A DNA stretch of 64,000 nt from Euryarchaeota archaeon UBA257 (GCA_002498985.1 DAJO01000037.1:3356-67355); one strand, 5' to 3'; shown: positions 5,034-45,354, numbered from the stretch's first letter. Made by a program: numbers and translations. Notes: generated from the sequence alone by a model not told the origin.

Positions 5034-8000
5034 TCAGGTAGTAGTTCGATCGTCATATCTTATCGGCGAAGCACTATTTCCACGGACTCCATCTAACATA
5101 TCATCTTCGATCTCAAAGAAGTCATTTAACCAGTCTCCATCAGTATCCCATTTAGTTGGATCTGTACCATCTGCGATCTGATCTCCATCAATATCTAAAG
5201 TCCACCACCCATATACATATTCGCCGAGTCCAATATTAGGAAAATGATACTGATCACCTGCAAATCTCTCATAGGAATCTGCCCATTCACCGCTACAGAG
5301 GGTCTCATCGTCAGTTGTATCTAAATACTGATAATCCAAATCATTATCATCAACTATTAAGGCAAAGAGTTGGTCATTATTATTGATTTTATACATTCTG
5401 AAATAATTAGATGTCAGGGCAGATGAACCGGAGCATGTACCTAACAAAGACTCTCTTAATTGCCACCATTCTTCTACATAATTTCCTGAACAGTCATTTA
5501 ATAAAGATTGACGCACTAATGTAGGAGAAGATAATGAAGCATTTACAACCCCATAATATTCTTGGAAATTATTGTAAGGTTGGTAGACACAATTCCCTCC
5601 TGAACAGTCCCAACCACCATCATTATCAGCATCTTGGCCTGCATCATTTGCGTCTGTTGCATCATGTGTAAACCATACCCAATTCAGAACTGGTCTAGAT
5701 ATGACATTATTAGAAATCAGAACTGGTTTCAGATTATTCGCTGAAATTTGTTCCCATTGGACTTGAATTTTGAGATATGATGACCAATTGTCATTAGTTT
5801 CGTTCCAACCCCTGTAATATTCATAGAAGTCTGGCATCATATCTCCATCTGTATCGTTATCTAAAGGATTAGTACCATATTTGAAAACTTCTCTACCATC
5901 ACTTAAATTCATATCTTGAATATAGTCTGTGACTTCACCATTAGTGAATACTGGTTTCATAACCATAGAATCATCATCTGAATCAGCATCTAATGGTAAT
6001 GTCCCATTTTCATATTCCATAATATTGCTAAAGAATAGAGGAACGAGGCCATTACTAATTTGATCTTCTATATTCGCGGGAGTAAATTGTCTATTTTCCC
6101 ATTTACCTTGAGTTGCAGGGACATCTTCCCATTGCCTGTCATACCAACCATCTTCATCAGGATCATAATTTACATCGAATGGATTTATTGGGTTCATTGA
6201 CCATCTGTAGTCATTGACTGGTAAGTACTGGCCATATATCGAGAAACAATATTCCCAACCATCAGGCATTCCATCTCTATCTGAATCTGAATCAGTAGGG
6301 TCACTAATTCCAGCCAAACTAATATTGAAGTTATCAGGATTAATCTGGTTAATCAATCCAGTTTTCTCGAAAGAAGATATAGACTTCGTAGAGAACGTAA
6401 CATATAATTGACTCAGAGCCAAAGAATAACTCATAGATTGCTCATCCATGTATGCATTCACAGTATCGGCTCCGTATGATACTAAACCTGTTCCATTCGG
6501 AATGCTGTCTATTGCCAATTTTTTGCCATATATCCTAGACTCAAACTCTGCCAAATTATCGAAAGATTCGGATGGAGTAATTATTCCATCTCCATTACAA
6601 TCATAAGAGTCATCGTCACTATCAACAAAAATATCTGTATCTGTAAGAAGATTCATCTCCCAACGATTATCTTCAAGATTCCATTCAGTGAACCAATATT
6701 CGTAACCATCACTCATTCCATCTCTATCTGTATCTTCAGTAGTAGGATCTGAAACTCCAAACAATGCTTTCAATAGAGGTTTTGCTGTAGCCCCGCCTTG
6801 CCAATCTGTAAACTGCTGAAGCGCGAGTTGAGCTCTACCTTCTTTATTAAATAGAATCCTGTATACTCTGTTTTCAGCCTCAGAGGGGTCAAGATATTCT
6901 GCTTCTTCCCAAAGACGAGGAGCATCTGGAGGAGATAACCCGCCATTAAATGGATTGTTTAATGTTAAATTAAGTTCAATTTGATCAGAGATACCGTCAT
7001 TATCTGAGTCGTAATTACCATCATTTGGAACAAGTGGATTTAGGGTCCAAACACCATCTGTTGAATTCCATCTTGTGAAAATTAACTCCATACCGTCAAG
7101 TAATCCGTCAGAGTCAGTATCTGGATTATTTGGATCTGCTGTAAAACCCGTCAGATTTATCTGTTCAGGTGACAAAAATGAACCAAAAGAACTGGAAGAT
7201 TCTGCAGATAACCAAGGATTAGGGAGATACTCACCTCCAAAGTAAAGTAGATAGAATTGTGGAACTGTAATTAGATTGTCTATCTCTGAAAGATTACTAG
7301 AAATTACATTATATTCTTCCCAGTTATTCATTCCATCTCCGTCTGGGTCGCCTATACGATCATTTTCATTGACTGGATTTAGGGTCCAAGCGCTATCAAA
7401 AAGACTCCATCGAGCATGGAAAAACTCCCAGCCATCTGGCATTCCGTCTTGATCCGAATCTGAACTAAGTGGATTACCCGAACCAATATCAATTTCAGAA
7501 GTAGCATTGATTAAATTATTGTAAGAATTACTGGCATACTTACCGAATGAACCGCCAGCAAAATCTTCCCATGTATCATTGAACAATAATGTAGTGAAAT
7601 TCTCCGGGAAAGGTATCCCATTGTCTGTACTATCTGAAAAGATAAGTTCTGATTTCAAATGGAACTCCATCCAATTTACGAGTCTCTCTTCAAGTTCTAA
7701 GATGCCGTTATGATTGACATCATATCCGTCACCATCAGGGTTATTTAATGCATCAGAGCCATTCAAAGGATTCAATCCCGCTGCATCAATAGACCATGAG
7801 CAAGAATACCTTGCTTCCCAGCCATCAGGTAATGTATCTCCGTCTGAATCAACATTGTTTGGGTCAGTTGCTGTCCAATTTAACGCTGCATCTGAACTTT
7901 CACCATGAGAAGGTAATCCTTCATTAATAACTGATTGAAGTAAATTTGACCACTTATATTCACATAGATTAGAAAGTCCATCGTTATCAGCATCTTCGTC

Positions 8001-10754
8001 AGCATCGTTAGGATTTCTTGGATCTAATGTCCATAAATTACCTCCATTATAAACATCTCCAATCCATCTTCGATTTTCAATTTCCCATCCATCAGGCATT
8101 CCATCTCCATCAGAATCTGTATCAGTCGGGTCAGTAGGGCCATCTGTTCCTCCGCCAGCACCAGAACCAAGCCATCCTTCAAGATGGACTGATAACGCTT
8201 CAGAACCTACTCCTTCATCACAAATATATTCTTGATTTAAGTAGTGACAGTCAAAGTTAGTAGATTCTGTGAACCAACCCCAATATTCTTCACCATCAGT
8301 TAATCCATCTCCATCGGTATCAATATTTCTTGGATCTGTTCCATTGAAACCATTTTCAGAGTTAGTGATAAATCGGAATTCATCCAAATTGGTCCAGCTC
8401 CTATCAACTCCCTCACCAAACTCTGAGTCGTATAGAATTCCATCCGCGTCAGCATCTCTATCACGGTCATATGGATCAGTTGGATCGAGACCATGAATAA
8501 ATTCCCAACCATCAGGCATCCCATCAAGATCGGAATCGGTAGATTGGGGGTCAATTGGCATGATATTCATGTAATTCCCAGGAGAAATACCTGCAAACAA
8601 GATTATTGATTCAGAAGATTCTAAAGTAGTTAATGAACTGACTAAACCAGGAAGGAATGTTTGATTATCTGACATTCCAGTTACTCCTTGGTAACCTCCT
8701 TCAAGAACCCAAGTCCCATCTTTAGAACCAACAATTACTTGATTGCTAAATGTATGAATTGAATGAACATCATTTGATCCTGAAAGCCAATTTTCCTGAT
8801 TCCACATCCTCTCAGAATCAAAAGCAGTTAGTGGCATTGATATCAATTTATCAATATCAATCAGATGTAAACCTCCTGATGTGCCAATCCAAGCACCTGT
8901 GATTAATTCAAAATTACCGGATGCGTCTTTAGGACCTGCAGGTTGGAGAATATTTACTATAGCCGACTTTGAAACGTTGAGTAAATCTGCTTTTTGAACG
9001 AAATTTTCTGCGTTTTCCCTGTTGAATACCCACCAAGGAGTACCTACTGAATCAGAGCCATCTGTGGTATTCCAAGCCATTAATCCTCCATCAGTTCCAA
9101 TGAGGAGTAAGGGGCCACGTCCATCCATTTCCATATGCAAAGCAGTATTGACATTCGCCGCATTATTGGATAAAATCTCAGATGTTGATTCAAGATAAAT
9201 TAGAGAGTTTATTGATTGCCCGGATATCGATGCAGTCCAAACATCTTGTCCCGAGAAAAGCATTAGATCTAGGCTTCCACTACCTGTACTAAGCACAACC
9301 ATCTCATTAATCGAACCGACAGAAACGCTAGATTCAGAGTCTTCAAAAGTTGTTGAATCTATTTGTGGGACTCCGTTCTGCATTTCTGCTATTGATATTC
9401 CTTGATTAGTTAACAATATTAGATAGTCGCCATCATCATTCGACCAATCCATCATTGAATTCAAAACTAAACCAGATGGTAGATTAATCATTGAAGATAC
9501 TTCATTAAAGGGGTCCAGTATTGTAATCCCAAATTCTGAACCTACGAGTAATCTATCTCTCTGATTGTCTGAAATGATACTATGAACAGCCGCATCAACT
9601 AATTGCGGCGAAGTAGACTGATCGTATGTAGAGAAACTATCGTCAGAGTGAGATAAGTCTATACTCCTTAGACCAGGAGTCACAGATACTCCTTGGTCAT
9701 AAAATATCATATATTCTTCATAATTGCTAAATGATTCCCCCCAACTAGATGTTGCTACTGAAGTATCAGGAATAATGTATCCATCTCTATCAAGATCCCA
9801 ACCGTCTGAATCTGAATCTAGAATTGCATCACTAGCATTTCTTGGATCAAGGCCATAATGTACTTCCCAGCCATCAGGAATACCATCTCCTGGAACTGCT
9901 AAACCTACAGAAATAACTTCTGCCCAAGAATAATAATCAGAATCTGATTCAGTAGGGTCACTACCAAGCCATCCGTCTCCGGTTTCCCTCTCTACTGATT
10001 TCTGACAGGAGTCAGAATTTAATAGATTAATTTCTCCAAAACACCACAAACCATCTCTCTCAGTTATCCAATTATCAGGGGTTCCAAAAAGATACTCTTC
10101 AGAATTAGTATACTTCTCAGTATCGTCTATAATACCATTTCTATCGACATCAAAACCATCTCCACAACCAAATGTAAAATCAGCACATCTATCAATATCT
10201 TCCCACATATCGCTAGAGTCTAAAGGGTCGAACCAAAGACATGTCCATGCATTAGTCGTATTTAGATAACCAAGACCGCCTTCAGTGCACATATAAATTT
10301 CATACCCATCTGGTAGACCATCACCGTCTGTATCAGCTACTCTCGGGTCTAGCCATTCTCTCATTCCTGAATCTGTTAAATCACCTGGCTTACCCGTTAA
10401 AGAAACTCTATCAGTAAAGCATCTGTCTAGCGTATATGGCCAACAATACTCAAGGAGGGCACTAGCACCATCATTATCATGGTCAGACATATTGTCAGTA
10501 CCATTTCTAGAATCAAGTCCGGATATACTAATTATCTCAGTGCCTAAATCAATAATTATATCTTCTCCGAATAGTATTTCTTCATGGAAATCAGGTATCT
10601 TATCTCCGTCTTCATCAGTTACTGGAGGTCCGCCCCCTGCGGCTTCACCTGGGTCGACATTTTCTACGGGTGCTTGTGGCCTGGTTTGAGAAACAAAGGC
10701 TAAACTTGACAGAATTAGAACTGTCATAAGAAGTGCTGTCTGTTTACGCCTCAT
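5034..10754 (-). CDS. giant secreted protein (1906 aa) with thrombospondin type-3-like Ca-binding repeats and a central beta-propeller-like region
   Basis: N-terminal signal peptide (MRRKQTALLMTVLILSSLAFV). At least a dozen DxDxDGxxDxxE-aromatic repeats (DTDGDGLPDGYE, DSDGDGMPDGWE, DSDRDGMPDGWE and others). A central region has propeller-like GTDGGL / GTSGGL blades. Many N-x-S/T sequons. No C-terminal TM helix. Confidence 0.8.
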   Translation of the reverse strand: MRRKQTALLMTVLILSSLAFVSQTRPQAPVENVDPGEAAGGGPPVTDEDGDKIPDFHEEILFGEDIIIDLGTEIISISGLDSRNGTDNMSDHDNDGASALLEYCWPYTLDRCFTDRVSLTGKPGDLTDSGMREWLDPRVADTDGDGLPDGYEIYMCTEGGLGYLNTTNAWTCLWFDPLDSSDMWEDIDRCADFTFGCGDGFDVDRNGIIDDTEKYTNSEEYLFGTPDNWITERDGLWCFGEINLLNSDSCQKSVERETGDGWLGSDPTESDSDYYSWAEVISVGLAVPGDGIPDGWEVHYGLDPRNASDAILDSDSDGWDLDRDGYIIPDTSVATSSWGESFSNYEEYMIFYDQGVSVTPGLRSIDLSHSDDSFSTYDQSTSPQLVDAAVHSIISDNQRDRLLVGSEFGITILDPFNEVSSMINLPSGLVLNSMMDWSNDDGDYLILLTNQGISIAEMQNGVPQIDSTTFEDSESSVSVGSINEMVVLSTGSGSLDLMLFSGQDVWTASISGQSINSLIYLESTSEILSNNAANVNTALHMEMDGRGPLLLIGTDGGLMAWNTTDGSDSVGTPWWVFNRENAENFVQKADLLNVSKSAIVNILQPAGPKDASGNFELITGAWIGTSGGLHLIDIDKLISMPLTAFDSERMWNQENWLSGSNDVHSIHTFSNQVIVGSKDGTWVLEGGYQGVTGMSDNQTFLPGLVSSLTTLESSESIILFAGISPGNYMNIMPIDPQSTDSDLDGMPDGWEFIHGLDPTDPYDRDRDADADGILYDSEFGEGVDRSWTNLDEFRFITNSENGFNGTDPRNIDTDGDGLTDGEEYWGWFTESTNFDCHYLNQEYICDEGVGSEALSVHLEGWLGSGAGGGTDGPTDPTDTDSDGDGMPDGWEIENRRWIGDVYNGGNLWTLDPRNPNDADEDADNDGLSNLCEYKWSNLLQSVINEGLPSHGESSDAALNWTATDPNNVDSDGDTLPDGWEARYSCSWSIDAAGLNPLNGSDALNNPDGDGYDVNHNGILELEERLVNWMEFHLKSELIFSDSTDNGIPFPENFTTLLFNDTWEDFAGGSFGKYASNSYNNLINATSEIDIGSGNPLSSDSDQDGMPDGWEFFHARWSLFDSAWTLNPVNENDRIGDPDGDGMNNWEEYNVISSNLSEIDNLITVPQFYLLYFGGEYLPNPWLSAESSSSFGSFLSPEQINLTGFTADPNNPDTDSDGLLDGMELIFTRWNSTDGVWTLNPLVPNDGNYDSDNDGISDQIELNLTLNNPFNGGLSPPDAPRLWEEAEYLDPSEAENRVYRILFNKEGRAQLALQQFTDWQGGATAKPLLKALFGVSDPTTEDTDRDGMSDGYEYWFTEWNLEDNRWEMNLLTDTDIFVDSDDDSYDCNGDGIITPSESFDNLAEFESRIYGKKLAIDSIPNGTGLVSYGADTVNAYMDEQSMSYSLALSQLYVTFSTKSISSFEKTGLINQINPDNFNISLAGISDPTDSDSDRDGMPDGWEYCFSIYGQYLPVNDYRWSMNPINPFDVNYDPDEDGWYDRQWEDVPATQGKWENRQFTPANIEDQISNGLVPLFFSNIMEYENGTLPLDADSDDDSMVMKPVFTNGEVTDYIQDMNLSDGREVFKYGTNPLDNDTDGDMMPDFYEYYRGWNETNDNWSSYLKIQVQWEQISANNLKPVLISNNVISRPVLNWVWFTHDATDANDAGQDADNDGGWDCSGGNCVYQPYNNFQEYYGVVNASLSSPTLVRQSLLNDCSGNYVEEWWQLRESLLGTCSGSSALTSNYFRMYKINNNDQLFALIVDDNDLDYQYLDTTDDETLCSGEWADSYERFAGDQYHFPNIGLGEYVYGWWTLDIDGDQIADGTDPTKWDTDGDWLNDFFEIEDDMLDGVRGNSASPIRYDDRTTT

Positions 10755-10931
10755 GCTATGACCTCGTCTTAACTACCCTTAGCGACTTTCATGCATTTAT
10801 GACCATGATGGAGCGTCGTTCGGACAAATACACATGATTGATACATTCTGGTGGTATCGAAATGGTGTATAAAAACGATATTTTTGTTATTTGAAACAGA
10901 TTAATTGAAGGACTAAACGTTCGCTCAAGAG

Positions 10932-11762
10932 ATGATTGATATGGGGTTACAGATTACTCATTTAGGTTCAGGTAGCAGAGGTAATTCTACCTTACTAGAA
11001 TCAGATAGTTGTAAAGTACTAATTGATTGTGGGTTCTCGTTGAAACAAACTGAAAAGAGGTTATCAACAATAAAAATTGAACCAAGTTCAATAGATGCTA
11101 TTTTTATTACTCATCACCATGGAGATCATTCAAAATCTGCACTGAAAGCATCTCAAAAATGGGGTTCAAATCTATACTGCAATATTGAAACTGCAATAAA
11201 AATGGGTTGGAATCCTATGTCAGATTGTAGAACATTCGGTAATTTAGAACGAATAAATATTAATGATGAAATAAGTGTTCTTCCAATACCAATCCCACAT
11301 GATGATGCTGAAAATATTGCTTTGATAGTGAGTAACGGTGATGGGAATAGAGCGGGTTTCGTCACAGATCTAGGAGAGGCTACTGTAGAATTGAAAAGAC
11401 ATTTGAAAGGGTGTTCACATATTTCAATTGAAGCGAATTATGACCATAAGAAATTAATGCAGGGCCCCTATCCAGATTCACTGAAAAGAAGAATTACTGG
11501 TCGTGGTGGGCACTTATCCAATAGCCAAACTGCAGAAATTTTATCTGAAATTATGACTCCAGAACTTAGAACAGTTGTTTTATGTCATCTTTCAGATAAA
11601 AATAACGCACCACACCTCGCTGAAAGTGAGGTGTTGATGAGAATTGGTGACGATTTCAAAGGCATGATTTTCATTTCCGAGCAGTCAGGACCAGAATTTA
11701 AAATTATGATTGGAGAGGAAAAAATCAGCAGCCGTATTAATAACGAAATTAGTGACCCATGA
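10932..11762 (+). CDS. MBL-fold metallo-hydrolase (YycJ/PhnP-like)
   Basis: HxHxDH motif (ITHHHGDHS), N-terminal LGSGSRGNSTLL...LIDCG, and a C-terminal GHLSN motif typical of YycJ-like MBL hydrolases. Confidence 0.8.
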   Translation: MIDMGLQITHLGSGSRGNSTLLESDSCKVLIDCGFSLKQTEKRLSTIKIEPSSIDAIFITHHHGDHSKSALKASQKWGSNLYCNIETAIKMGWNPMSDCRTFGNLERININDEISVLPIPIPHDDAENIALIVSNGDGNRAGFVTDLGEATVELKRHLKGCSHISIEANYDHKKLMQGPYPDSLKRRITGRGGHLSNSQTAEILSEIMTPELRTVVLCHLSDKNNAPHLAESEVLMRIGDDFKGMIFISEQSGPEFKIMIGEEKISSRINNEISDP

Positions 11763-14277
11763 CTACTCTATGAACAGAGTTTTGTACTTCCTTCATACGA
11801 TCGTTTGCACCAAGTTCGCGGAATACTGAAAGAGCTTTTTGCAGATACTCCATCCTCTGAGAGCGATCGGTCTCAACTTCACCGAGACGGGCAAGTAGCT
11901 CCCCCTTCAAATGACGGAAGTCATTCGCTTCTGCTAGTGCTAATCCCTCTAAATAATGTTCAGAAGCTTCCTCTTTCCTACCCGCGTCGCTTAATACTTG
12001 ACCTAATAGCATTTCAACTTCAACCGCACTATGAGGGTCCGCCTGTTCAGACAGAATCTCTAGAGCACCGGAGTAATGTAACATTGCTAAGTCATTATCC
12101 TTAATTTTAGCATAATATCTCCCTAATACTGCTCTTGCTCTGGCGTGAAGAGTTTCTTGCCCATTATCCTTAGTTTCGTCATGAGCCAACATTGCGTGAT
12201 CTCGGGCACGATCGAATTCGCCCATCTCCAAAAATGCAGATGCGAGACGGATTCTTGAATCGCATAATTCAGGATTACTTTCTGACTCTAATAACTCTTC
12301 CACGTTACCGTATACTTCTAAGGCGTGCCTATTATCTCTACGGCGACGGAAAATATAACCCATGTTATTATAAGAACGAGCCGCAGAAACTGCGTCTCTG
12401 GTCTTAATTTGAATTTCTAATGCCTGTCTATGTAATTCTAATGCATCATCCATTGCACCTCTTTTAACTGCAATATCAGCCCTAGAAGATAATAATCTAG
12501 CTAATTCCTTATTTTGTTTGTTTTTACGTGCTATAGGAATTGCCGCATCATATTCTTTCTCTGCGGCGTCCCAATGCCCCTGGATCGATAGAATATCTCC
12601 TCTAAGTTCTCTTACAATTCCCCACGATATAGAATCGAAACCTTCCCTGTCCAAAGATCTTAAAATTCCTAGAAGTTCTGTGTGTCCTGATTGTACCAGA
12701 TTTGGTCCTTCTGAAGAAAGAACTTTTGCTAACTCTTCTATTTGTTCTGAATTATGTAAATGGTGAATAAATTCTATCCTGTCAGTAGGACTTGCCTTAC
12801 GGCCACGGTACCAATTGACTGCATTATTATGTAACTCATGACGTAAATTTTGCTCCATTGAGAGTACTAAAAATTCTCTAACTAAATCGTGAACATCGTA
12901 ATTTTCGCTGTCTGCTTGCCTTGCTAGACCTTTCTCAACTAAATCATCTAAAAGATCGATTGCTGCATCAAGATCACTCAATGCACTCAGAGGCATTGGT
13001 TCACGGAAAACTGCAATAGCACCTAGAAGCCTCTTTTGTGGACCAGATAACCTACTAAAGATTTCTTTCTCGACAAATGTTTCTAATGTAGCGTGAAAAG
13101 TCCCCCCTACACTACCTCTATTTATCAATTCTAAAACTAGTGGATGACCTCTAGAAAGCGAATAAATGTGGAGGAATTGAGGAGCGTCCATATCCGGCAT
13201 AGCGGAGAGAATCTGTTTACTTGACTCTTTATCTAATCCTTCAAGAGGCATTACTAAAGTGAGAATTTTCCCTTCAGAGTCTTTCTCAGGTACAACCATT
13301 CTAAAAGATCTAGAGAACATAATTACACCTACTTGACTGAGGTTGGGAATCCTTGTTGCTATTCCTCTCAAGATAGTAATTAGAGTTTCATCGCCAACTT
13401 TATGTAAATCGTCAATTACAATTAAACTTGGAGAATTCCTAAGTCCTTCTATGATTAAGTCAATCGTGACATTGGACTGCGGTATTGGTGTTGCAGCTAA
13501 GTAATCAGAAAGCCCATTATTACCCATTGTTGCTTGCCATTCCGCGGTAGCCTCAAGAAATGCTCTCGAACCTTCCCAATCTTGGCAGCGATGATATAGT
13601 AAATTTCTTTCATGAGTGAATCTCTCAAGAATTTTTCCAGCAAGAGCGGTCTTTCCAATGCCTGCAATTCCTGGAACTAATATTGAAGATGACCTTTTTT
13701 CAAGAAGATTAACCATGTCGTCAACTTCTTTCTCTCTACCGAAAAATTTTCTAGTTCTTGGTAGGTCATTGAAAGAGGTTACTAATTGCTTCTCAATATG
13801 TTTTGATAAATCTCTCTCAATTAATTCAGCTGAAAGGACCGATAAATCTAAGCTACCATTATCATCGATATATCTCAAGATATCTACATGTCTTAATGGT
13901 AAATCAGTTAGCTCAAGAGCATTAATTAAAGCCACGCTTTTTGAACTCCCATCGGGAAATTTCAGCCTTACATTTTGAGTACTTACTTTTTCCCAAATTC
14001 CATTAGCGACTTTTATCCCGTCGTCAGTTAGGAAATACGCTTTTCGCTTACGGGAAACTCCAGTTACATGTGCCTGCCTTTCAATAAGTAGACCCTGTTC
14101 CCTCATACCAGAAATTGCTCTAGGGACATTAGATCTCGCAATTGCTACCGAGTTAGCGATGCCCATCTGCGATAATGCAAATGGTACTTCGACTCTACCA
14201 GCATGTTCAACATAGTCCCTGAGGTGTAATAATATCCTCTCTTGGACGCCGGGCCTTGGCACTGCCATGTTGCTCAT
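11749..14277 (-). CDS. wHTH-STAND ATPase-TPR protein (842 aa), putative signal-transducing regulator
   Basis: N-terminal winged-helix domain. Arch_ATPase/NB-ARC-like P-loop (FGREKE...ILVPGIAGIGKTALAGK) and Walker B (LIVIDDLHK). The C-terminal third is TPR-like repeats. Confidence 0.8.
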   Translation of the reverse strand: MSNMAVPRPGVQERILLHLRDYVEHAGRVEVPFALSQMGIANSVAIARSNVPRAISGMREQGLLIERQAHVTGVSRKRKAYFLTDDGIKVANGIWEKVSTQNVRLKFPDGSSKSVALINALELTDLPLRHVDILRYIDDNGSLDLSVLSAELIERDLSKHIEKQLVTSFNDLPRTRKFFGREKEVDDMVNLLEKRSSSILVPGIAGIGKTALAGKILERFTHERNLLYHRCQDWEGSRAFLEATAEWQATMGNNGLSDYLAATPIPQSNVTIDLIIEGLRNSPSLIVIDDLHKVGDETLITILRGIATRIPNLSQVGVIMFSRSFRMVVPEKDSEGKILTLVMPLEGLDKESSKQILSAMPDMDAPQFLHIYSLSRGHPLVLELINRGSVGGTFHATLETFVEKEIFSRLSGPQKRLLGAIAVFREPMPLSALSDLDAAIDLLDDLVEKGLARQADSENYDVHDLVREFLVLSMEQNLRHELHNNAVNWYRGRKASPTDRIEFIHHLHNSEQIEELAKVLSSEGPNLVQSGHTELLGILRSLDREGFDSISWGIVRELRGDILSIQGHWDAAEKEYDAAIPIARKNKQNKELARLLSSRADIAVKRGAMDDALELHRQALEIQIKTRDAVSAARSYNNMGYIFRRRRDNRHALEVYGNVEELLESESNPELCDSRIRLASAFLEMGEFDRARDHAMLAHDETKDNGQETLHARARAVLGRYYAKIKDNDLAMLHYSGALEILSEQADPHSAVEVEMLLGQVLSDAGRKEEASEHYLEGLALAEANDFRHLKGELLARLGEVETDRSQRMEYLQKALSVFRELGANDRMKEVQNSVHRVVMGH

Positions 14278-14345
14278 ATTAGTACAGCAATCTGAATCAA
14301 TACAAGAAGTTTCGGTGGTGGAGTCTCTGACTCAAGTCATCAAAA

Positions 14346-18575: not shown

Positions 18576-18673
18576 GTTTTACCGTATTATGTATCATTTA
18601 TCAATGCTAGAGTTACATTTGAGACTAATGTATCAACAAAGCGTATTTGTATCAATTTCAAATATTGGAAAAA

Positions 18674-19912: not shown

Positions 19913-19990
19913 GAAAAGTTACCACCTAACTTGAGGGTATAGATTCAGTATAAGAATCCCTGTTCCTAAAGCCCGCTAATCATCTCAATA

Positions 19991-29497: not shown

Positions 29498-29616
29498 TAT
29501 TAATCACCATGTTGTCGAGCCTGCAGGCTCAGAGTTCCGGCGAAAATTGAGGATGTTATAACCGTTAGTGGGACAACGGTTTTCAGATAAAAATAAAATA
29601 TGAGTAAATATTGCCT

Positions 29617-30876
29617 TCAGAGCCCTTTATGGGCAATGTCTTTTCTAAAATATGAACCTTCTAATTCTATGTTCTCAATTACTTCATACGCGGCTTCAAC
29701 TGCTAAACCTAAATTAGGCGCTATTCCGGTTGCTGCGAGCACACGACCACCATCAGAAATTAATGTACCTTCATTAGAAATCATGGCACCAGCATAATGG
29801 ACAAAGGCACTGATTTCTCCTTCCTCAATTCTTGTTTCTGTACCCGTGATTACTCTACCAGTAATTGAATTGGAAGGATAACCTTCTGAGCACAAAACAA
29901 TGGTTGCCGATGAGTGCGGAAATATATTATATTCGCATTCAGAAATTTTGCCATTTGCACAAGACATCAACAACTCCCCTAAATCGCTTGAGATTAATGG
30001 TAACGTCACTTGTGTTTCTGGATCTCCAAAACGGACATTAAATTCTACTACAAAAGGGGCACCATTCTGATCTATCATTAGTCCGACATATAGGCAACCA
30101 CGATAAGGCACATCCTGATTTCTAAGGAAATGATGCATAGGCTCAATGATTTCTGAAATTGTCCTCTGTTCTACAGCAGGTGTATAAACCGGAGCAGGAG
30201 CATAAGCTCCCATACCACCTGTATTTGGGCCATTATCGCCGTCCAGAAGACGTTTATGGTCTTGACTTGCAGGTAAACAAACATAACCTGATTCATCCAT
30301 TACTACCAAAACTGACGCTTCTTCACCAAATAGGAATTCTTCAAGAAGGACTTTTCCATCCAACTCTATTCCATCTTTCAGAGCATTAAAGGCTTCATTA
30401 CGATCAGATGTTACAACTACTCCTTTACCACCTGCAAGGACATCTCTCTTCACCACCCAAGGAGGTGAATAGATATCTAATGAGTCATTAATTTGGTCAA
30501 TTTTTTCTATCAATATCAGACCAGCTGTTGGGACTTTCATCGATTGCATGACCTCCTTTGCATGCAATTTCGAACCTTCTAATTTAGCACCTATTGAATT
30601 AGGGCCGAAACAAGGAATTTCTTCTTCTGAGAGCCTATCAGATAAGCCAGCAACTAGTGGCGCTTCAGGACCAACCACTACCAAATCTATATTCAATTTT
30701 TTAGCTAAATCAATTATTCCCTCAATATCCATTGAATCTACTTTATAATTAGTCCCTGAAATAGCCGTACCTGCATTCCCGGGGCATGAATGAACATGAT
30801 TTACTGAGTCCGATTCTGAGAGACGTAGGGCTAGAGCATGCTCTCGGCCACCACTGCCTACAATGAGTACTTCCAT
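29617..30876 (-). CDS. purD: phosphoribosylamine--glycine ligase
   Basis: MEVLIVGSGGREHALA N-terminus, ATP-grasp blocks, and the full PurD architecture. Start chosen at Met4 of the track ORF. Confidence 0.92.
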   Translation of the reverse strand: MEVLIVGSGGREHALALRLSESDSVNHVHSCPGNAGTAISGTNYKVDSMDIEGIIDLAKKLNIDLVVVGPEAPLVAGLSDRLSEEEIPCFGPNSIGAKLEGSKLHAKEVMQSMKVPTAGLILIEKIDQINDSLDIYSPPWVVKRDVLAGGKGVVVTSDRNEAFNALKDGIELDGKVLLEEFLFGEEASVLVVMDESGYVCLPASQDHKRLLDGDNGPNTGGMGAYAPAPVYTPAVEQRTISEIIEPMHHFLRNQDVPYRGCLYVGLMIDQNGAPFVVEFNVRFGDPETQVTLPLISSDLGELLMSCANGKISECEYNIFPHSSATIVLCSEGYPSNSITGRVITGTETRIEEGEISAFVHYAGAMISNEGTLISDGGRVLAATGIAPNLGLAVEAAYEVIENIELEGSYFRKDIAHKGL

Positions 30877-30942
30877 GCCAGTCATGTTCGTCCGATGGAG
30901 TAAGGGAATTAATGAATTCTAATGCCGTATTGTAAAATAAAA

Positions 30943-31713
30943 CTAGTAAGGAACTTCTTTTAACCCAAATTTATAGCCTAAAATATTGAATGAACGGTGG
31001 ATTACGGGAGTGATGATCAAAAGGAAAATAATTTCTTCAACTAAATTGGGATGAGTTATAATCTGGCCATCGAATAGTAAAAAAGCAGTAGCAAATATAG
31101 CAATCGCAAAGGGAATTGTATCCAATAGAGGAGCTTCTGAACTTTCATCGCCTTCTCTTTTCAATCCTCTTCTACGCTTTACAAATGAACCACACATATC
31201 TCCAATCATGCAGGAAAAACCAAGTATAAAACCCATTGTAAATGCAGCAAATGATGAACTAAGTTCTCCTTCGAAAAACCAGAACCAATCGCCAGGGTCG
31301 GCATAAATTAGTGGGTCAATAAATGGTGCATTTGTACCATTACCATTCCAGATATTGTGGGCTACAATAAATAATATTCCACTGAATATACCTCCTCCTA
31401 TCAAACCATTCCAAGACTTTCCATCTCCCAATATTCTATGACCATCCGAATAATTCCTTCCGCGATCTATAATAATTACAGACATTCCAGTTTTATCGGG
31501 TATCCATTTACCGAATAACATTGCACCAGTGTTGGCTAAATATGCGGAACCATACATCAATAACACGCATAATACATTTACAAAAAATGATTCAAGGCCA
31601 TTCGATTGGAAAGGAGGGGAAGAGACATCCACAACCTGTCGAAAAGACTTTCGGACATGAAACATTCCCTCATGGCGCCCAAGTATTAATTTCCTATTGG
31701 TGATTCGCAGCAT
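30943..31713 (-). CDS. carS: CDP-archaeol synthase-like (DUF46/CarS family) membrane protein
   Basis: Polytopic membrane protein with a GDxxGSFxKRR motif (GDMCGSFVKRRRG) as in CarS/CTP-transferase DUF46. It is longer than canonical CarS, so the assignment is tentative. Confidence 0.5.
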   Translation of the reverse strand: MLRITNRKLILGRHEGMFHVRKSFRQVVDVSSPPFQSNGLESFFVNVLCVLLMYGSAYLANTGAMLFGKWIPDKTGMSVIIIDRGRNYSDGHRILGDGKSWNGLIGGGIFSGILFIVAHNIWNGNGTNAPFIDPLIYADPGDWFWFFEGELSSSFAAFTMGFILGFSCMIGDMCGSFVKRRRGLKREGDESSEAPLLDTIPFAIAIFATAFLLFDGQIITHPNLVEEIIFLLIITPVIHRSFNILGYKFGLKEVPY

Positions 31714-31715
31714 AC

Positions 31716-33482
31716 ATGAGTACCATACTAAAGATGAAAACTGGTTTTACCTCAATATTATTGATTCTAGTTTTTTTCACTGTACCAACTGTTGCAGACA
31801 ATCATCAAGGAGACATAATAATTGATGAGATTGTTGAATGGACGACTGACCAAGATATAAATCAAAACATTCACATAACTAGTGAAGGTAAGTTGACGAT
31901 TAGTTCCTCGATAACTTTCTCCTCAACATCTACAATAATCATTGACCAAGGAGGAGAATTGAGATTAATAGAATCCTCAGAATTAATTTCTGATAAAAGG
32001 GCGACTTCGTTGAAGACATTAGGAGCTATTGATGAACAAAATAGGTCGAAAATCATTATACCAAGCTCAATTCATAATGGAGACATGAATGTCATAATAA
32101 ACGCTGAAGAGGGGGCATTGTTAGACGGTAGTAATGTATACTTAGGAGATATGGAACCTGTATTAATGAGTGGAATGAACTTCTCATTGAATGTTCCAGA
32201 ATCACAGGGAGATACAGCCCTAGGTTTCACCGGATACGGACAGTTCCCGATTATTAAATCAATTATTATTGAGACAGAATCTGGGAATTATGAATACAAA
32301 GCTAATGAATTACCGTATCAGAATATGTTACTTCACGGAGACAATGGACTTACAATAAACTCTGATGGGAAAATTGAGATAATAGAAAACTCAACATTGC
32401 ATGGTGTGAATATAATTTCGAGCAGTGAGATAATAATAAAGGAAGGAATTATCAAAGATAGTAGCCCAATGATATTAACCAGTGATGATGCTTCATTAAT
32501 CATTCAGAACAGTGAAATCTCAGGTAGTAGCGACGACCACTATGTACAAGCACAGCCGCTAACAAATATTGTATGGGGTGCTTCAGAAGACAATACTGCT
32601 GTTTCAATAAAAGGAGATTTAATTGATAGATGGGAACGAATAATTTCTGATCAAGTCATTATTTTAGATTCCGAAGGAGTTTATTTTAGTATTACTGGAA
32701 GCAGCCCCAACGGGGTATTAGAAATCAATAATTATAGCGGTTTTGATGGTAAATCAGTCATCAATACTCAAGGGGATTCTAGAGTAATTGAGATAGGTTG
32801 GGCAAATGGAGAAATCACTACTGAAAATGCAGTTATTTCAATATTAGAATATAGGACTGCTTGGAATACAGAATCTAGTGGAATCAACAATTATGGTCCA
32901 GCGAATTTTGAATTGACATGGGAAAAGGAAATAGATTTGACTTCAATTAATGTCCCGAACATAGAATGGGTAGATCTTAACGTAAACCTAGATGATTCTA
33001 CATCAGAGGGAATCTTACAAACCGGGGTATCTCAACAGATATCTGCTATTTTAGCGAATAGAGGTGGTGCTTCTGCTAATTTATTCTTTGATTGTAATAT
33101 TACAGAAACAGGAATGTCGGCAGATATTGGGGGGTATCAGAACGTAATGATTGATGCCGGAGAAGAAGTAGAAGTTTTCTTCGGTTGGAGAAATAATGAG
33201 CCTGGTACATTAAGTCTAACATGTGAGGTATTAACGCCTAGTCAATTGGTTGATTATGAAAACTCACAGGCATTTGGAGGAGGCACTATGTCTACAGAAC
33301 CTATCCTTTGGGAAGAAATTAATGATGAAAGTTTCAACATGATTCCAATCCTTATTGTCATAATAATTATTATGATCTCTGCAGGAGTTTACTTTGTACA
33401 TAATTTATCAAAAAATGCCGAAGAAACAGCTGAAATTCTAGATAATTATAATAAATCTTCTAAAAATGAAGAAGATATCTGA
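31716..33482 (+). CDS. type-I membrane surface protein (588 aa), beta-helix-like repeats
   Basis: N-terminal signal/anchor. Repetitive Ile/Ser/Glu-rich beta-strand repeats. A C-terminal TM helix (ILIVIIIIMISAGVYFV) followed by a short acidic tail. Confidence 0.6.
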   Translation: MSTILKMKTGFTSILLILVFFTVPTVADNHQGDIIIDEIVEWTTDQDINQNIHITSEGKLTISSSITFSSTSTIIIDQGGELRLIESSELISDKRATSLKTLGAIDEQNRSKIIIPSSIHNGDMNVIINAEEGALLDGSNVYLGDMEPVLMSGMNFSLNVPESQGDTALGFTGYGQFPIIKSIIIETESGNYEYKANELPYQNMLLHGDNGLTINSDGKIEIIENSTLHGVNIISSSEIIIKEGIIKDSSPMILTSDDASLIIQNSEISGSSDDHYVQAQPLTNIVWGASEDNTAVSIKGDLIDRWERIISDQVIILDSEGVYFSITGSSPNGVLEINNYSGFDGKSVINTQGDSRVIEIGWANGEITTENAVISILEYRTAWNTESSGINNYGPANFELTWEKEIDLTSINVPNIEWVDLNVNLDDSTSEGILQTGVSQQISAILANRGGASANLFFDCNITETGMSADIGGYQNVMIDAGEEVEVFFGWRNNEPGTLSLTCEVLTPSQLVDYENSQAFGGGTMSTEPILWEEINDESFNMIPILIVIIIIMISAGVYFVHNLSKNAEETAEILDNYNKSSKNEEDI

Positions 33483-33483
33483 A

Positions 33484-33960
33484 TCATATATCCAAGACGA
33501 CTTGAGCCATCCAACCTGGTCCTTCAAAGGTAGGAATATTTGGTTCTACGCCTGTAACTATTTCGCCCTTGTTTATTTCTCTAAATACTAGTTCATGTAA
33601 TGTCACTGCCTTGATTTCAATTTCACGATGTACAAAATCTGACTTAACCCAAGAAACATGTGCAGAGATAGATTTTTCATCGATTTTAACTGCTAAATCA
33701 ACTAGCCATTGATCTTCAACAGAGCCTCTGTAAAGTATTTCCTCTAGAAACTTGACAAGTCCTCTTTCCAAATCATTATTGTTAATCACCACTGCCCATA
33801 CTCCATTAAATCTTGTTAAATGATTTAGAGATTCAGGATTCTTATCCTCTAACTGAATTGATTGGAGTCCAAGAACACATTCAGTAATAGCACCCACAGC
33901 AGTAGATGAAAATGCTCTAATTCCAATATCTGCAGTAGTCGGAAGAATCCACCAAGACAT
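33484..33960 (-). CDS. archease (RtcB activator)
   Basis: N-terminal HTADIGIRA-type block (PTTADIGIRAFSSTAVGAITE) and an archease-sized product. Start taken at MSWW. Confidence 0.7.
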   Translation of the reverse strand: MSWWILPTTADIGIRAFSSTAVGAITECVLGLQSIQLEDKNPESLNHLTRFNGVWAVVINNNDLERGLVKFLEEILYRGSVEDQWLVDLAVKIDEKSISAHVSWVKSDFVHREIEIKAVTLHELVFREINKGEIVTGVEPNIPTFEGPGWMAQVVLDI

Positions 33961-33968
33961 ATTTAGCG

Positions 33969-36900
33969 TCACTCAAATTGATTGCATAATTCACCCTGAC
34001 TGGGGAAGCTCACAGGATCCTTTGGATTGGTATTCCATTTATTCTCACATTTATTCAGAGACCCATCCCCGTCAGAATCGATATTTGCATCTGCAGGATC
34101 GAATGGATCAAAGTCGAAGAAATATTCCCATCCTGCCCACATTCCATCACCATCTTGGTCTTGGTGGAACACTTCTGAGCCATCGAACCACTGATCACCG
34201 TCAGTATCATTCAAAATTGGACTTGTTCCATTTTGCATTTCCTCGAAATTAGTATAATTTTCAAGGTCATCATAGAACCTTTTTCCATAATCTCCCATTG
34301 GATCAATGTGGCACTCCGCATTTTGTGGATCGTCCCAACCCGGGCAATAACGGTACAACAAATTTGTACGATTTAGCCCGTCTCTATCAAAGTCTTCCTG
34401 TCCGTCATCCACACCGTCTAAATCAGAGTCAATCATTGCAGGGTCCATCGGTCCTCGTGCACCTAATGCATTCAATGAGTTATTGTCTACAATACCTAAA
34501 GAAATTGCTTCTCCCGAATAGAAAACTTCCCATCCATCTGGGAGTTTATCGCCATCAGTATCGTCATTAACAGGATTAGTATTCCACCTGTCAGGTGCTT
34601 CTAGTTGATTCATTAGAGTATCATTGTCAATGTCAAATATATTATCTGTCATAGAACCATAAGCCGGATCTAAAGCCCATCTTCCATCATTAGGAATTAC
34701 AAAACCTGATAGATTCATTTCATGAAGGAAATATTTCGGGTCCATTACTCCATCACCATCTCTATCTCCAGATGTAGAGAAACCTTGGACATAATTTGTC
34801 CAGACCCAACCGCCCGGTCCTAACCCACATTCAAACATATTATCGCATCCAGGTGGAAGCCAATTAGTACTACTAATCCATAAGCTGTGACTATTAGTAT
34901 TCTGTTGTATTGAAAATACTTGCATTTCCCATCCGTCGGGTTGTCCGTCTTCATCTGTATCATTAATCAACGGATTGGTAGCTGCCTGCCACGGTCGTGG
35001 AATGAATAATACTTCTCCACCATCATCTAATCCATCACCATCGCTGTCTGCATTATTACCATGAGTGATGTACTGATCCTGCCCATCTACCACTTCTTCT
35101 CCATCCGCTAATCCATCATTATCTGTATCAAATGAAGAAGCATTAGTGAAATATTGTTCTGTGACATTCCAGTAGAATCCATCCATGGATTCAGTAAAAT
35201 CTTCCAAACCATCGCTATCAGTATCTCTATCCGTAGCATTAGTAAACGTTTCATAATATTCAACTGCATCAGAAAGACCATCACTGTCTGTGTCAAATAC
35301 ACCAGGGTCGCTACGAACTAACACGTCTTTAACGCCATTATCAACGACTCTGATTGTCCAACCAATAACCTCTATGCCATCGATTAGCCCGTCATTGTCA
35401 GTATCAGCTACGAGAGGATTTGTCGACCTCCCGTCAGTAATACCATCTCCATCTCTATCTCTAGCGTTATACTCATCTAAGTTTGTGAATCTTTCATCTT
35501 GTTCCACAATAATAGCTAAATCTTGAGTTCTAGTAAGTACCTCATCCCCAACATTAACATTAATCTCATAAACCCAGCCTTCGGTTTGTGTCTTTACAGG
35601 AATATTTACATAAACACTGTTTTGAACTGTTCTGACCCAGAGAATTGTTTTATTCACAGGGACATATTCTCCCAATTCTACGGAAATCAAATGAACAGTA
35701 CTAACCCCTACAAGATCGTCATAACGAACCCCGCCATCACCATCAGAATCATACCCATCAAAATCAGGGTCTTCTAAAGCATTGGCGCCATCATCATTAG
35801 GGTGTATTCCATTCAAATGCTCCCAACCATCGGGCATACCATCATTATCAGTATCAGACATTAATGGGCTAGTGAAATTTTCAGGACCCCAGGTGTATGC
35901 GACTTCATACTCTTCTACGTTATTTAGACCGTCTTCATCCCTATCACCGTAGGCATCAGTTGCATTGGCAGGATTAAGGAATCTCTTATTTTCTTGATCT
36001 AGTGCATAACAATATTCGTACCCATCAGGCATTCCATCGCCATCAGAGTCCCAATCTCCGGGGCCGTTGAGGCGCCCATCGCCATCCATATCTTCCTCAA
36101 ACCAAGTCATATCTCCAGGACCGCTCATGTATTCGTGATATGGTGCCTGTAATGTCAAGGTACCAAATTGTATCACTCCACAATGGACTGAAAGATCGAT
36201 GTTACCGAATGCTATTTCATATCTATCAGCAATCAAGTCACCATCACTATCTTCTTCCAATGGATTAGTATCATATCTTTCTTCTACATAATTTCTGAGA
36301 CTATCTGGTTCAGGTTGTTCCAAATCTAATAATGCATCGCAAGAATGGCCGAATTGATTACCCATCTCATCAAAGGTACTGGCTCCAATATCTGCCTTGA
36401 TTTGTGCCTTGACTTCAGGAGTTAAAATATAGCAATCCCAATTTCCATCGAGAGGGTCAAGAAGCTTAATTGGTCCTTGAGGTGTCTCTACAGTGTAAGT
36501 GTAGAGAGATTCCCAGCGATCATTCAACCCATCTCCGTCAGAATCTTGTAAATTTGGATTTGTGCCAAGTGCTGCCTCATCCACATTGATTAGCCCATCT
36601 CTATCTGGATCTCCAAATGGGCCATTATCAGGATTAGGGAATGTTTCATTTAACTCAGTATTTTCATCGTTCTCATCCGGATTAGTAGTTTGTGGATCAG
36701 GTTCAGCGGCTTCACCACTATCTAATGGATCTAAGCCATTATCAATCTCCCATCCATCTTCTAAACCATCATTATCTGTATCGGAGAGTCTCCAATCAGT
36801 ACCGTAAAGTGTCTGCTCCATTCTGTCAGGTAAACCATCACCATCTGTATCTTTACCTTCTATGTGATTTTCATTATCAGAAGTTTCTATGTCTACTGAA

Positions 36901-37016
36901 CCATCTTCCCATCCAGAAACTGTAGCTAAACCGGCTCCAATAATTGTGTAAAATCCTGCTAAAATCAAGGTTGCAGCGATGGCTGCAACGGCATATTGGT
37001 TGTGTGTCAAAGCCAA
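33969..37016 (-). CDS. secreted/anchored protein (1015 aa) composed mainly of thrombospondin type-3-like Ca-binding repeats
   Basis: More than 20 DxDxDGxxDxxE motifs (DTDNDGLEDGWE, DSDGDGMPDGYE, DTDGDKLPDGWE and others). N-terminal hydrophobic anchor. TTG start with a GGTGA SD-like sequence upstream. Confidence 0.8.
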   Translation of the reverse strand: MALTHNQYAVAAIAATLILAGFYTIIGAGLATVSGWEDGSVDIETSDNENHIEGKDTDGDGLPDRMEQTLYGTDWRLSDTDNDGLEDGWEIDNGLDPLDSGEAAEPDPQTTNPDENDENTELNETFPNPDNGPFGDPDRDGLINVDEAALGTNPNLQDSDGDGLNDRWESLYTYTVETPQGPIKLLDPLDGNWDCYILTPEVKAQIKADIGASTFDEMGNQFGHSCDALLDLEQPEPDSLRNYVEERYDTNPLEEDSDGDLIADRYEIAFGNIDLSVHCGVIQFGTLTLQAPYHEYMSGPGDMTWFEEDMDGDGRLNGPGDWDSDGDGMPDGYEYCYALDQENKRFLNPANATDAYGDRDEDGLNNVEEYEVAYTWGPENFTSPLMSDTDNDGMPDGWEHLNGIHPNDDGANALEDPDFDGYDSDGDGGVRYDDLVGVSTVHLISVELGEYVPVNKTILWVRTVQNSVYVNIPVKTQTEGWVYEINVNVGDEVLTRTQDLAIIVEQDERFTNLDEYNARDRDGDGITDGRSTNPLVADTDNDGLIDGIEVIGWTIRVVDNGVKDVLVRSDPGVFDTDSDGLSDAVEYYETFTNATDRDTDSDGLEDFTESMDGFYWNVTEQYFTNASSFDTDNDGLADGEEVVDGQDQYITHGNNADSDGDGLDDGGEVLFIPRPWQAATNPLINDTDEDGQPDGWEMQVFSIQQNTNSHSLWISSTNWLPPGCDNMFECGLGPGGWVWTNYVQGFSTSGDRDGDGVMDPKYFLHEMNLSGFVIPNDGRWALDPAYGSMTDNIFDIDNDTLMNQLEAPDRWNTNPVNDDTDGDKLPDGWEVFYSGEAISLGIVDNNSLNALGARGPMDPAMIDSDLDGVDDGQEDFDRDGLNRTNLLYRYCPGWDDPQNAECHIDPMGDYGKRFYDDLENYTNFEEMQNGTSPILNDTDGDQWFDGSEVFHQDQDGDGMWAGWEYFFDFDPFDPADANIDSDGDGSLNKCENKWNTNPKDPVSFPSQGELCNQFE

Positions 37017-45324: not shown

Positions 45325-45354
45325 TTAGTTGGGGTTTGAATTTGCCCCAACTAA
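45325..45354 (-). terminator. perfect 10-bp stem-loop overlapping the stop codon of the 2386-aa gene
   Basis: ttagttgggg-N10-ccccaactaa. On the minus strand it is followed by a pyrimidine/T-rich tract (TCCCTATCTTCATGTAATTTCTT). The stop codon TAG (45351-45353) lies in the 3' arm. Confidence 0.5.

Follow-up and report, generated by a model that had tools for sequence, protein, structure and literature searches.

Two conserved families of putative calcium-binding surface glycoproteins in a surface-protein-rich region of a Marine Group II archaeon

Background

The closest described relatives of the proteins discussed here are the bacterial thrombospondin type 3 (TSP3) proteins of Pfam family PF18884 (TSP3_bac), exemplified by the OmpA-family protein 5wtl of Bacteroidetes and by CglD and MtsD of Myxococcus. 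These proteins are secreted or located at the surface, and they carry a loop of the form DxDxDGxxDxxE, which is followed by G-(T/L)-(D/N)-P and often comes in pairs about 37-44 residues apart. In this study we analyse two large proteins with loops of this form, ORF1 and ORF2 (ORF, open reading frame), encoded in a 64,000-nucleotide stretch of DNA from Euryarchaeota archaeon UBA257 (GCA_002498985.1 DAJO01000037.1:3356-67355), which is called the window below. All coordinates are those of the window, and the interval examined is 5034-37016. The loop, the residues after it, its pairing and the predicted location outside the cell are shared with the bacterial proteins. The differences are that the host is an archaeon, that our two proteins are probably N-glycosylated, as judged from conserved sites, and that the loops stand in other architectures, with ORF1 joining a beta-propeller to about 20 loops and ORF2 joining an N-terminal anchor to a small barrel.

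Other described systems are alike in part. The type 3 repeats of eukaryotic thrombospondin and COMP (PF02412) also place Asp-rich DxDxDG calcium loops along an extracellular glycoprotein in which calcium is structural. In thrombospondins, position 12 of the loop is Asp and the loops lie within a disulfide-stapled wire, whereas the loops studied here have no intra-repeat Cys pairs and carry Glu at position 12, followed by a predicted helix as in EF-hands. The loops of Bap (7c7r), anthrax protective antigen (PA), C2-II domain 1 and lanmodulin share with ours the consensus at positions 1, 3, 5, 6, 9 and 12 and the predicted helix start at position 9, but Pfam reports no paired helix-loop-helix EF-hand in our proteins, and the loops per chain are far more numerous. 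Giant adhesins made rigid by Ca2+ (the RTX/BIg 'Ca_tandemer', ice-binding and Lap proteins) are very large, acidic and secreted, and their extension depends on many Ca2+ sites. By functional analogy ORF1 and ORF2 may be compared with them in size, acidity and number of predicted Ca2+ sites, but fold and repeat type differ, for our loops are not set in tandem Ig domains and their number is fixed across the order. Finally, archaeal S-layer glycoproteins, such as that of Haloferax volcanii, are acidic and N-glycosylated, and the genome carries AglB. Our proteins, too, are acidic predicted surface proteins with conserved sequons in a genome with AglB; however, they have no sequence or domain similarity to S-layer glycoproteins and neither a C-terminal anchor nor a PGF-CTERM signal.

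The Marine Group II (MGII) archaea are among the most abundant planktonic archaea and are uncultured, and their cell surface is known from genomes alone. A first-pass annotation, made by a model from the sequence of the window, had described the interval as an island of surface glycoproteins forming a dedicated module for calcium-dependent adhesion or glycocalyx. Our analysis favours another view: with a probability that we put at roughly 55%, ORF1 and ORF2 are core, calcium-stabilised glycoproteins of the cell surface, acting as envelope or contact components of fixed architecture, with no dedicated island. That Poseidoniales have thrombospondin genes was already known; what is corrected here is the special adhesion island and the rarity in archaea, and no new kind of system is proposed. 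The MGII 'thrombospondin' genes are seen here as two families of fixed architecture across the lineage, whose predicted calcium and glycosylation sites are under strong selection, and which sit in a conserved region with an exceptionally large AglB; they are targets for the study of the MGII envelope.

Results and Discussion

DxDxDG loops in ORF1 and ORF2

The two large reading frames reported by the first-pass annotation do exist, both on the minus strand:

5034..10754, minus strand: ORF1, 1906 residues, 212 kDa, pI about 4
33969..37016, minus strand: ORF2, 1015 residues, 112 kDa, pI about 4, 15.5% Asp

We scanned 32 of the 34 ORFs of at least 150 residues listed for the window for the core DxDxDG, taking the expectation from composition-preserving shuffles. 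On the whole, 19 cores are found in ORF1 and 23 in ORF2, compared with 0.32 and 0.37 expected, and none in the other 30 ORFs scanned. The numbers claimed earlier, more than 12 and more than 20, hold for this core; for the strict pattern D.D.DG..D..E they do not, as it occurs 9 times in ORF1 and 12 times in ORF2. When D or N is allowed at positions 3 and 5, the motifs number 22 and 23. Over 21 and 22 motifs of the two proteins, D1 and G6 reach 100%, D3 and D5 90-100%, D9 52-59% and E12 68-71%, with L, I or M at position 7; position 11 or 13 is often occupied by Trp or Tyr, and (T/S)(D/N)P precedes the motif by a few residues. An aromatic residue, said to follow the final Glu, does so in just 5 cases in ORF1 and 2 in ORF2, and Trp or Tyr right before Glu ('DGWE') is at least as common. 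The description of the proteins as built largely from tandem motifs is overstated, since 20-residue segments at the motifs make up 21% of ORF1 and 40% of ORF2, and the gaps are irregular, from 7 to 420 residues, the longest being a single motif-free stretch of ORF1. The C-terminal half of ORF1 has repeated two-loop modules of the form 'DSDxDGMPDGWE ... W(T/S)(L/M)NP ... DxDxDGxxNxxEY', with the two loops about 37-44 residues apart.

As both proteins have a high Asp and Gly content, the motifs might be taken for a compositional or low-complexity artefact, or the ORFs for something other than genes. Shuffles of the same composition yield 0.3-0.4 motifs against the 19-23 observed, and hundreds to thousands of full-length homologs keep the motif positions; this rules the artefact out, and we leave it practically no chance.

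The kind of loop

The gathering cut-off of PF18884 is 25 bits, and ORF2 exceeds it with 32.7 bits over 13 stretches; several orthologs of ORF1 bear a precomputed PF18884 mark. The loops follow the repeat consensus of this family, in which the Gly of DxDxDGxxDxxE is succeeded by a hydrophobic residue and the loop itself by G-x-(D/N)-P. The first-pass annotation had proposed a comparison with the eukaryotic family PF02412 (TSP_3), and this family is listed for neither protein at a max_evalue of 10, at which the HMMER filters still drop most matches above about 0.1, so that very weak ones are possible. Cys pairs for inter-repeat disulfides are absent from the repeats, the 19 Cys of ORF1 and the 10 of ORF2 (1.0%; nine of the ten invariant) lying mostly outside the motif segments. 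The EF-hand families of Pfam, which describe paired helix-loop-helix units, are not reported even at a max_evalue of 10. At the level of the single loop, 9 loops of ORF1 and 12 of ORF2 fit the canonical EF-hand ligand pattern exactly (positions 1, 3, 5, 9 and 12, with Gly6).

Run against the whole set of PDB sequences, a profile built from 26 loops matches the engineered lanthanide-binding tag 3vdz, lanmodulin (6mi5/8fns), Bap of S. aureus (7c7r/7c7u), the OmpA-family protein 5wtl, C2-II (2j42), anthrax protective antigen, calmodulins and polcalcins, all of which we take to hold Ca2+- or lanthanide-binding loops in their solved structures. No thrombospondin or COMP chain is among these matches, and searches of the PDB sequences with whole ORF1 and ORF2 gave nothing useful. 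In AlphaFold2 models, computed from alignments of 33-34 sequences with no ions, loop position 9 is the start of a helix in 9 of the 23 ORF2 motifs and 9 of the 14 ORF1 motifs, including most motifs of the confidently modelled N-terminal half of ORF2; as modelled, loop and helix are arranged like the loop and exit helix of an EF-hand. Judged by their sequence, the loops are better called EF-hand-like DxDxDG loops of bacterial TSP3 type. The earlier name, thrombospondin type-3-like calcium loops, is right as a Pfam label and agrees with the PF18884 match and the likeness to solved Ca2+ and lanthanide loops, while homology to eukaryotic TSP3 is not detected in these searches. A dockerin-like reading was rejected because of the Glu at position 12 and the irregular spacing.

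The same matches raise the question whether the two proteins are extracellular sinks for metal ions, buffering Ca2+ or capturing lanthanides or trace metals without a structural role. The lanthanide-binding tag and lanmodulin are among the best profile matches, several loops start with DPD as in lanmodulin, and each chain offers about 20 sites and a high negative charge. However, most loops start with DTD or DSD, the matches reflect the generic consensus of EF-hand loops, and no lanthanide-dependent enzyme or transporter is encoded in the window. In addition, Ca2+ in seawater is far above typical EF-hand affinities, so that buffering would, on general knowledge, have no obvious purpose. We therefore regard a metal sink as very improbable.

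Two families of fixed length

Compared across GTDB genomes, the purD gene of the window is up to 96% identical to its matches in metagenome-assembled genomes of Poseidoniales/Thalassarchaeaceae (MGIIb); the window comes from a member of Marine Group II (Poseidoniales, Thalassarchaeaceae). At E<=1e-5, ORF2 has over 2600 homologs. Among the best 120, identities are 58-96% and nearly all lengths 1008-1060 residues, and the few with a source name belong to Thermoplasmatota/Euryarchaeota. For ORF1 there are 455 homologs at E<=1e-5, the full-length ones having 1884-1941 residues and identities down to 42%. One of them is annotated by NCBI as 'thrombospondin type 3 repeat-containing protein [Candidatus Poseidoniaceae archaeon]', and therefore the ORF1 family spans MGIIa and MGIIb. 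ORF1 and ORF2 are thus two orthologous families of fixed length, core genes of the lineage, in which the repeat number does not vary.

The invariant columns of both alignments are mainly motif residues. All 32 ORF1 homologs, whose identity goes down to 42%, keep the same 13 of 14 motifs intact, and in ORF2 most motifs are intact in 30-33 of 33 homologs. The Asp/Asn residues of the motifs have a conservation of 0.98 in ORF2, compared with 0.71 for other Asp (p=4e-10), and of 0.91 in ORF1, compared with 0.65 (p=1e-6). The N-glycosylation sequons (N-x-S/T) behave in a similar manner: of the 15 in ORF2, 14 recur in 74% or more of the homologs and 7 in every one, the invariant sites including N593, N625, N768, N798, N920 and N929, and the sequon Asn is conserved at 0.91 versus 0.55 for other Asn in ORF2 (p=2.5e-4) and at 0.64 versus 0.42 in ORF1 (p=0.0045). 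Such conservation argues that the glycosylation sites are probably used. In number, the sequons exceed the shuffled expectation in ORF2 (15 versus 8.0, reached in 5 of 500 shuffles) and show no excess in ORF1 (25 versus 21.6).

The loops had also been called rare in archaea. Besides the hundreds to thousands of homologs just described, more DxDxDG-rich proteins, of at least one further family, are found in 683 kb of Poseidoniales loci, compared with none in 500 kb of bacterial control loci. In the literature, thrombospondin genes are widespread in Poseidoniales and have been read as adhesion factors (Rinke 2019, PMC6461757), a statement repeated for MGIIb-N1 (PMC8821943), and protein-family modules specific to MGIIa and MGIIb include calcium-binding domains (Meheust 2022, PMC9258230). 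Because of these homolog families, the further DxDxDG-rich proteins and the published reports, the repeats are to be seen as a recurrent building block of the MGII secretome and not as a rarity. In the literature searched we found no paper on large adhesion proteins in MGII, and a search on the S-layer gave nothing relevant.

The further family has about 1060-1100 residues, 11-17 motifs and an N-glycanase_C domain (PF09113), and it is encoded near the ORF2 orthologs of more distant Poseidoniales (L064 17425-20613, minus strand; L066 17257-20451, minus strand).

Predicted architecture of the two proteins

Outside the loops, the following parts can be distinguished (pLDDT is the AlphaFold2 confidence score):

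8580..9692, minus strand: predicted beta-propeller of ORF1, residues about 355-725, pLDDT mostly 80-93
36918..36992, minus strand: N-terminal hydrophobic helix of ORF2, residues about 9-33 (5-33 in the AlphaFold2 model)
35502..35729, minus strand: predicted barrel-sandwich domain of ORF2, biotinyl/lipoyl-carrier-like, residues about 430-505, pLDDT about 80

ORF1 begins with a predicted Sec-type signal peptide (MRRKQTALLMTVLILSSLAFVSQT...) with an RRK n-region, and a Kyte-Doolittle scan finds this single N-terminal hydrophobic segment. Its propeller region has no Pfam match, contains no calcium motifs and few invariant columns, and nowhere is the protein less conserved; Foldseek matches the model with WD40 propellers and with the extracellular sensor propellers of BT4673 and BT4663, which are hybrid two-component systems of Bacteroides (E about 1e-8). 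At the other end, the C-terminus of ORF1 (window 5034-5080) is nearly invariant, ..GNSxSPIRYDDRTT(T), and this motif may be an unrecognised sorting or attachment signal.

In ORF2, too, the Kyte-Doolittle scan finds a single hydrophobic segment, the N-terminal helix. As acidic sequence comes after it, this helix is read as a likely signal anchor that would leave most of the protein outside the cell. Residues H5, N6, Q7, A9, A12, I13, T16, L19, A20, G21 and Y23 of the helix are invariant. A plain signal peptide would not usually be so invariant, and a specific interaction in the membrane may be involved. A type IV pilin-like signal was considered and rejected, as the sequence has no K/R-G/A cleavage motif ahead of the hydrophobic stretch. 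Foldseek matches only the small barrel of the ORF2 model (E about 1e-3, TM-score 0.8-0.9 relative to the targets), where a weak NCBIfam match also lies (438-493), and gives no thrombospondin-like or repeat-level match. It may be observed that a biotinyl/lipoyl-carrier-like fold is here predicted to sit inside an extracellular calcium-loop protein.

Envelope component or adhesin

Taken together, the predicted N-terminal export and anchor signals, the acidic remainder, a composition unlike that of cytoplasmic proteins, the conserved sequons and the AglB of the same region make it probable that the first-pass annotation was right in calling the two proteins surface glycoproteins. We propose that ORF1 would be exported by its signal peptide through the Sec pathway, and that ORF2 would be held in the membrane by its conserved N-terminal helix. 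Each acidic ectodomain would present about 20 EF-hand-like 12-residue loops DxDxDGxxDxxE with a short helix after each. Seawater contains about 10 mM Ca2+, and by similarity to known loops each would there hold one Ca2+; the bound ions would cross-brace the structure of the exported chain, making it fold and stiffen. The Asn residues of the conserved sequons would probably be glycosylated by the giant AglB of the region, and the sequence-variable propeller of ORF1 would be the likely part for contact with a ligand.

The two proteins might instead be adhesins for attachment to particles or cells, whose primary role is to bind algae or organic particles and in which calcium merely extends the stalk. 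The interpretation of the thrombospondin genes by Rinke 2019 points this way, and so does a sub-threshold similarity to the NCBIfam equivalogs CglD and MtsD, Myxococcus proteins of gliding and cohesion. The analogies with Bap and the Ca-tandem adhesins, and the variable propeller of ORF1 with its glycan-sensor-like fold neighbours, can be read likewise. However, the NCBIfam scores are far under the cut-offs, with 95.9 bits for ORF2 and 34.1 for ORF1 against 400 for CglD, and 44.6 and 16.6 bits against 800 for MtsD, and the propeller matches are generic WD40-like folds. A fixed length with loops fixed in position across the order is atypical of repeat-variable adhesins, and it is because length and loop positions are invariant that we favour envelope or contact components of fixed architecture. 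We consider primary adhesins unlikely, though they are an alternative to be taken seriously.

Several points weigh against fixed envelope or contact components. The choice between a structural coat and attachment is drawn from patterns of conservation. ORF1 has no C-terminal transmembrane helix and no recognisable membrane or cell-wall anchor, and its release from the cell is possible. With PF18884, ORF1 scores 22.3 bits over 7 stretches, just under the cut-off. In addition, the mean pLDDT of the two AlphaFold2 models is 56 and 61, and most motif-rich regions are modelled poorly, with a pLDDT under 50, as is about half of each model.

Gene content of the region

The interval contains 11 ORFs of at least 150 residues, and 80% of it encodes predicted exported or membrane proteins. 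Besides ORF1 and ORF2, the genes are as follows, the last three lying outside the interval:

10932..11762, plus strand: metallo-beta-lactamase-fold (MBL) hydrolase by Pfam, neighbour of ORF1 homologs elsewhere too
11749..14277, minus strand: STAND-type ATPase by Pfam, with N-terminal HTH and C-terminal TPR repeats, kept in the cluster
14346..18575, minus strand: beta-helix giant, predicted type I membrane protein of 1409 residues with signal peptide, right-handed beta-helix, Big_7, C-terminal transmembrane helix and acidic tail (Pfam and hydrophobicity)
18674..19912, minus strand: S8 subtilase, predicted to be membrane-anchored (Pfam and hydrophobicity)
19991..29497, minus strand: giant AglB/STT3 oligosaccharyltransferase of 3168 residues, with STT3 Pfam domain
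29617..31713, minus strand: purD and CDP-archaeol synthase (CarS), housekeeping genes by Pfam, within the supposed island
31716..33482, plus strand: 588-residue predicted type I membrane protein with signal peptide and C-terminal transmembrane helix, without Pfam match
33484..33972, minus strand: archease by Pfam, its start overlapping the ORF2 stop by 4 nucleotides
37096..38190, minus strand: 364-residue predicted cytoplasmic protein directly upstream of ORF2, without Pfam or PDB match
45351..52511, minus strand: MAM giant, predicted type I membrane protein of 2386 residues with DUF7151 and InhA-like MAM domain, the sole lectin-like candidate
54115..55488, plus strand: second S8 subtilase, predicted to be membrane-anchored

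Accordingly, of the neighbours said to be interleaved with the two proteins, the beta-helix giant, one S8 protease and the giant AglB do lie in the interval, and the second S8 protease and the lectin-like candidate lie beyond it. By Pfam scan, the window genes beyond the surface set of the interval and the named outliers are housekeeping genes; past the 364-residue protein, upstream of ORF2, they are an aminotransferase, AlaRS and RtcB. A search of PDB sequences with the 364-residue protein gave nothing useful. The beta-helix giant has a weak NCBIfam match to Ca_tandemer, and self-BLAST finds no internal sequence repeats in it, in the AglB extension, or in the MAM and 588-residue proteins. Both the beta-helix and the MAM giants end with a C-terminal transmembrane helix and then a strongly acidic predicted cytoplasmic tail rich in Asp, Glu and Tyr, e.g. 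..DEDYYYDDDEEEYEEDDWEYEEED. The STAND ATPase is likely a regulator; it is located between the beta-helix giant and ORF1 across Poseidoniales and could regulate the adjacent surface-protein genes.

The giant AglB

The most unusual element of the region is the AglB of 3168 residues, as characterised archaeal AglBs are several times shorter. Its STT3 domain scores 58.7 bits (cut-off 24.5), and the catalytic motifs are present, with a DxD-like motif at 410-415 (IIDADR at 410), TIGE at 715 and WWDYG at 941. About 330 extra N-terminal residues with extra hydrophobic (transmembrane) helices precede this core, and an extension of about 2000 residues, predicted to be extracellular, gives only weak CarboxypepD_reg, DUF11 and Ig-like signals; there is also a C-terminal transmembrane helix. 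A length of about 3100-3300 residues is kept in all the Poseidoniales loci. When the core region was searched by HMMER against 1.84 billion cluster representatives, orthologs of 3146-3228 residues with 46-65% identity were found, followed by a large second tier of 2000-2800 residues with 28-38% identity; one named relative is a 'carboxypeptidase regulatory-like domain-containing protein [Thermoplasmata archaeon]'. No paper joining AglB with Poseidoniales or Marine Group II was found in the literature searched. In the loci L020-L022, 5 DxDxDG motifs lie in the reading frame of the giant AglB itself, which spans about 3300 codons from stop to stop.

AglB itself has 43 sequons, compared with 30 expected (reached in 1 of 500 shuffles). 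Of the large proteins, in all of which sequons were said to be frequent, only ORF2 and AglB exceed the expectation; ORF1 and the beta-helix, 588-residue and 2386-residue proteins have no excess over composition. One might go further and suppose that Poseidoniales are without a conventional S-layer and wear a coat of Ca2+-braced N-glycoproteins, namely ORF1, ORF2 and the beta-helix and MAM giants, in which AglB, with its extra N-terminal helices and its arm of about 2000 residues tied down by the C-terminal helix, is both enzyme and structural element. Such a coat would account for the place of an oligosaccharyltransferase among the highly transcribed genes of MGIIb-O1 (PMC9723583); we consider such a coat-integral AglB a doubtful extension with a small chance of being right.

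Chromosomal collinearity or a dedicated island

Much the same content can be read as the dedicated module of the first-pass annotation, in which AglB, the proteases and the giants are co-regulated to build a calcium-dependent adhesive coat. Besides the large coding share of predicted secreted and membrane proteins and the conserved sequons, it has on its side the STAND regulator within the cluster and the conserved gene order, which we examined in a purD-centred comparison of 31 Poseidoniales loci. As far as the flanks extend, the block of the 588-residue protein, CarS, purD and giant AglB is present in all 31 loci, and the S8 protease lies downstream of AglB in each locus with enough flank. 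In the three contigs with ORF1 homologs, at 62%, 52% and 44% identity, the order is (AglB), S8, beta-helix, STAND, (0-3 inserted genes), MBL and ORF1. The part of the claim that concerns the AglB-to-ORF1 order is thus borne out, down to 44% ORF1 identity.

However, these three contigs equally retain the unrelated flanks, i.e. DnaJ, the NUDIX/pyroglutamyl peptidase gene and the RNA-binding protein. Because the housekeeping flanks are as syntenic as the block, and because purD and CarS lie inside it, its conservation appears to be general chromosomal collinearity. ORF2, in turn, is linked only in the nearest genomes: it is a neighbour of the AglB block in no more than 9 loci, each with a purD at least 74% identical, and at least 10 loci with full flanks do not have it at the corresponding place. 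In L064 and L066 its ortholog (60-64% identity) is found elsewhere, where only the aminotransferase and the upstream partner without Pfam match are retained; this partner, the 364-residue protein, still pairs with ORF2 in these distant genomes at 27-31% identity. The arrangement of the genes also argues against a module. ORF1 and its MBL neighbour are divergent across 177 nucleotides, STAND and MBL converge and overlap, and ORF2, 79 nucleotides after the 364-residue gene, is embedded in the AlaRS-aminotransferase-archease run. Archease, as well as purD, CarS, MBL and STAND, is interleaved with the surface genes, and domain scans of the window proteins find neither glycosyltransferase nor flippase genes. 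The GC content is uniform, 0.33-0.41 over the window and 0.36-0.41 in the interval, with no step at the interval edges. On the whole, none of the marks of a genomic island is seen, whether deviant composition, mobility genes or a contiguous co-directional set kept as a unit. The region is rich in surface proteins, yet it is not a dedicated, co-regulated or mobile island, and a dedicated module seems to us improbable.

In two distant Poseidoniales, L069 (15886-21204, plus strand) and L070 (15781-21243, plus strand), the gene directly downstream of the ORF1 ortholog encodes an extra giant of 1772-1820 residues that weakly resembles the 2386-residue MAM protein of the window, and three genes are inserted between STAND and MBL in these loci.

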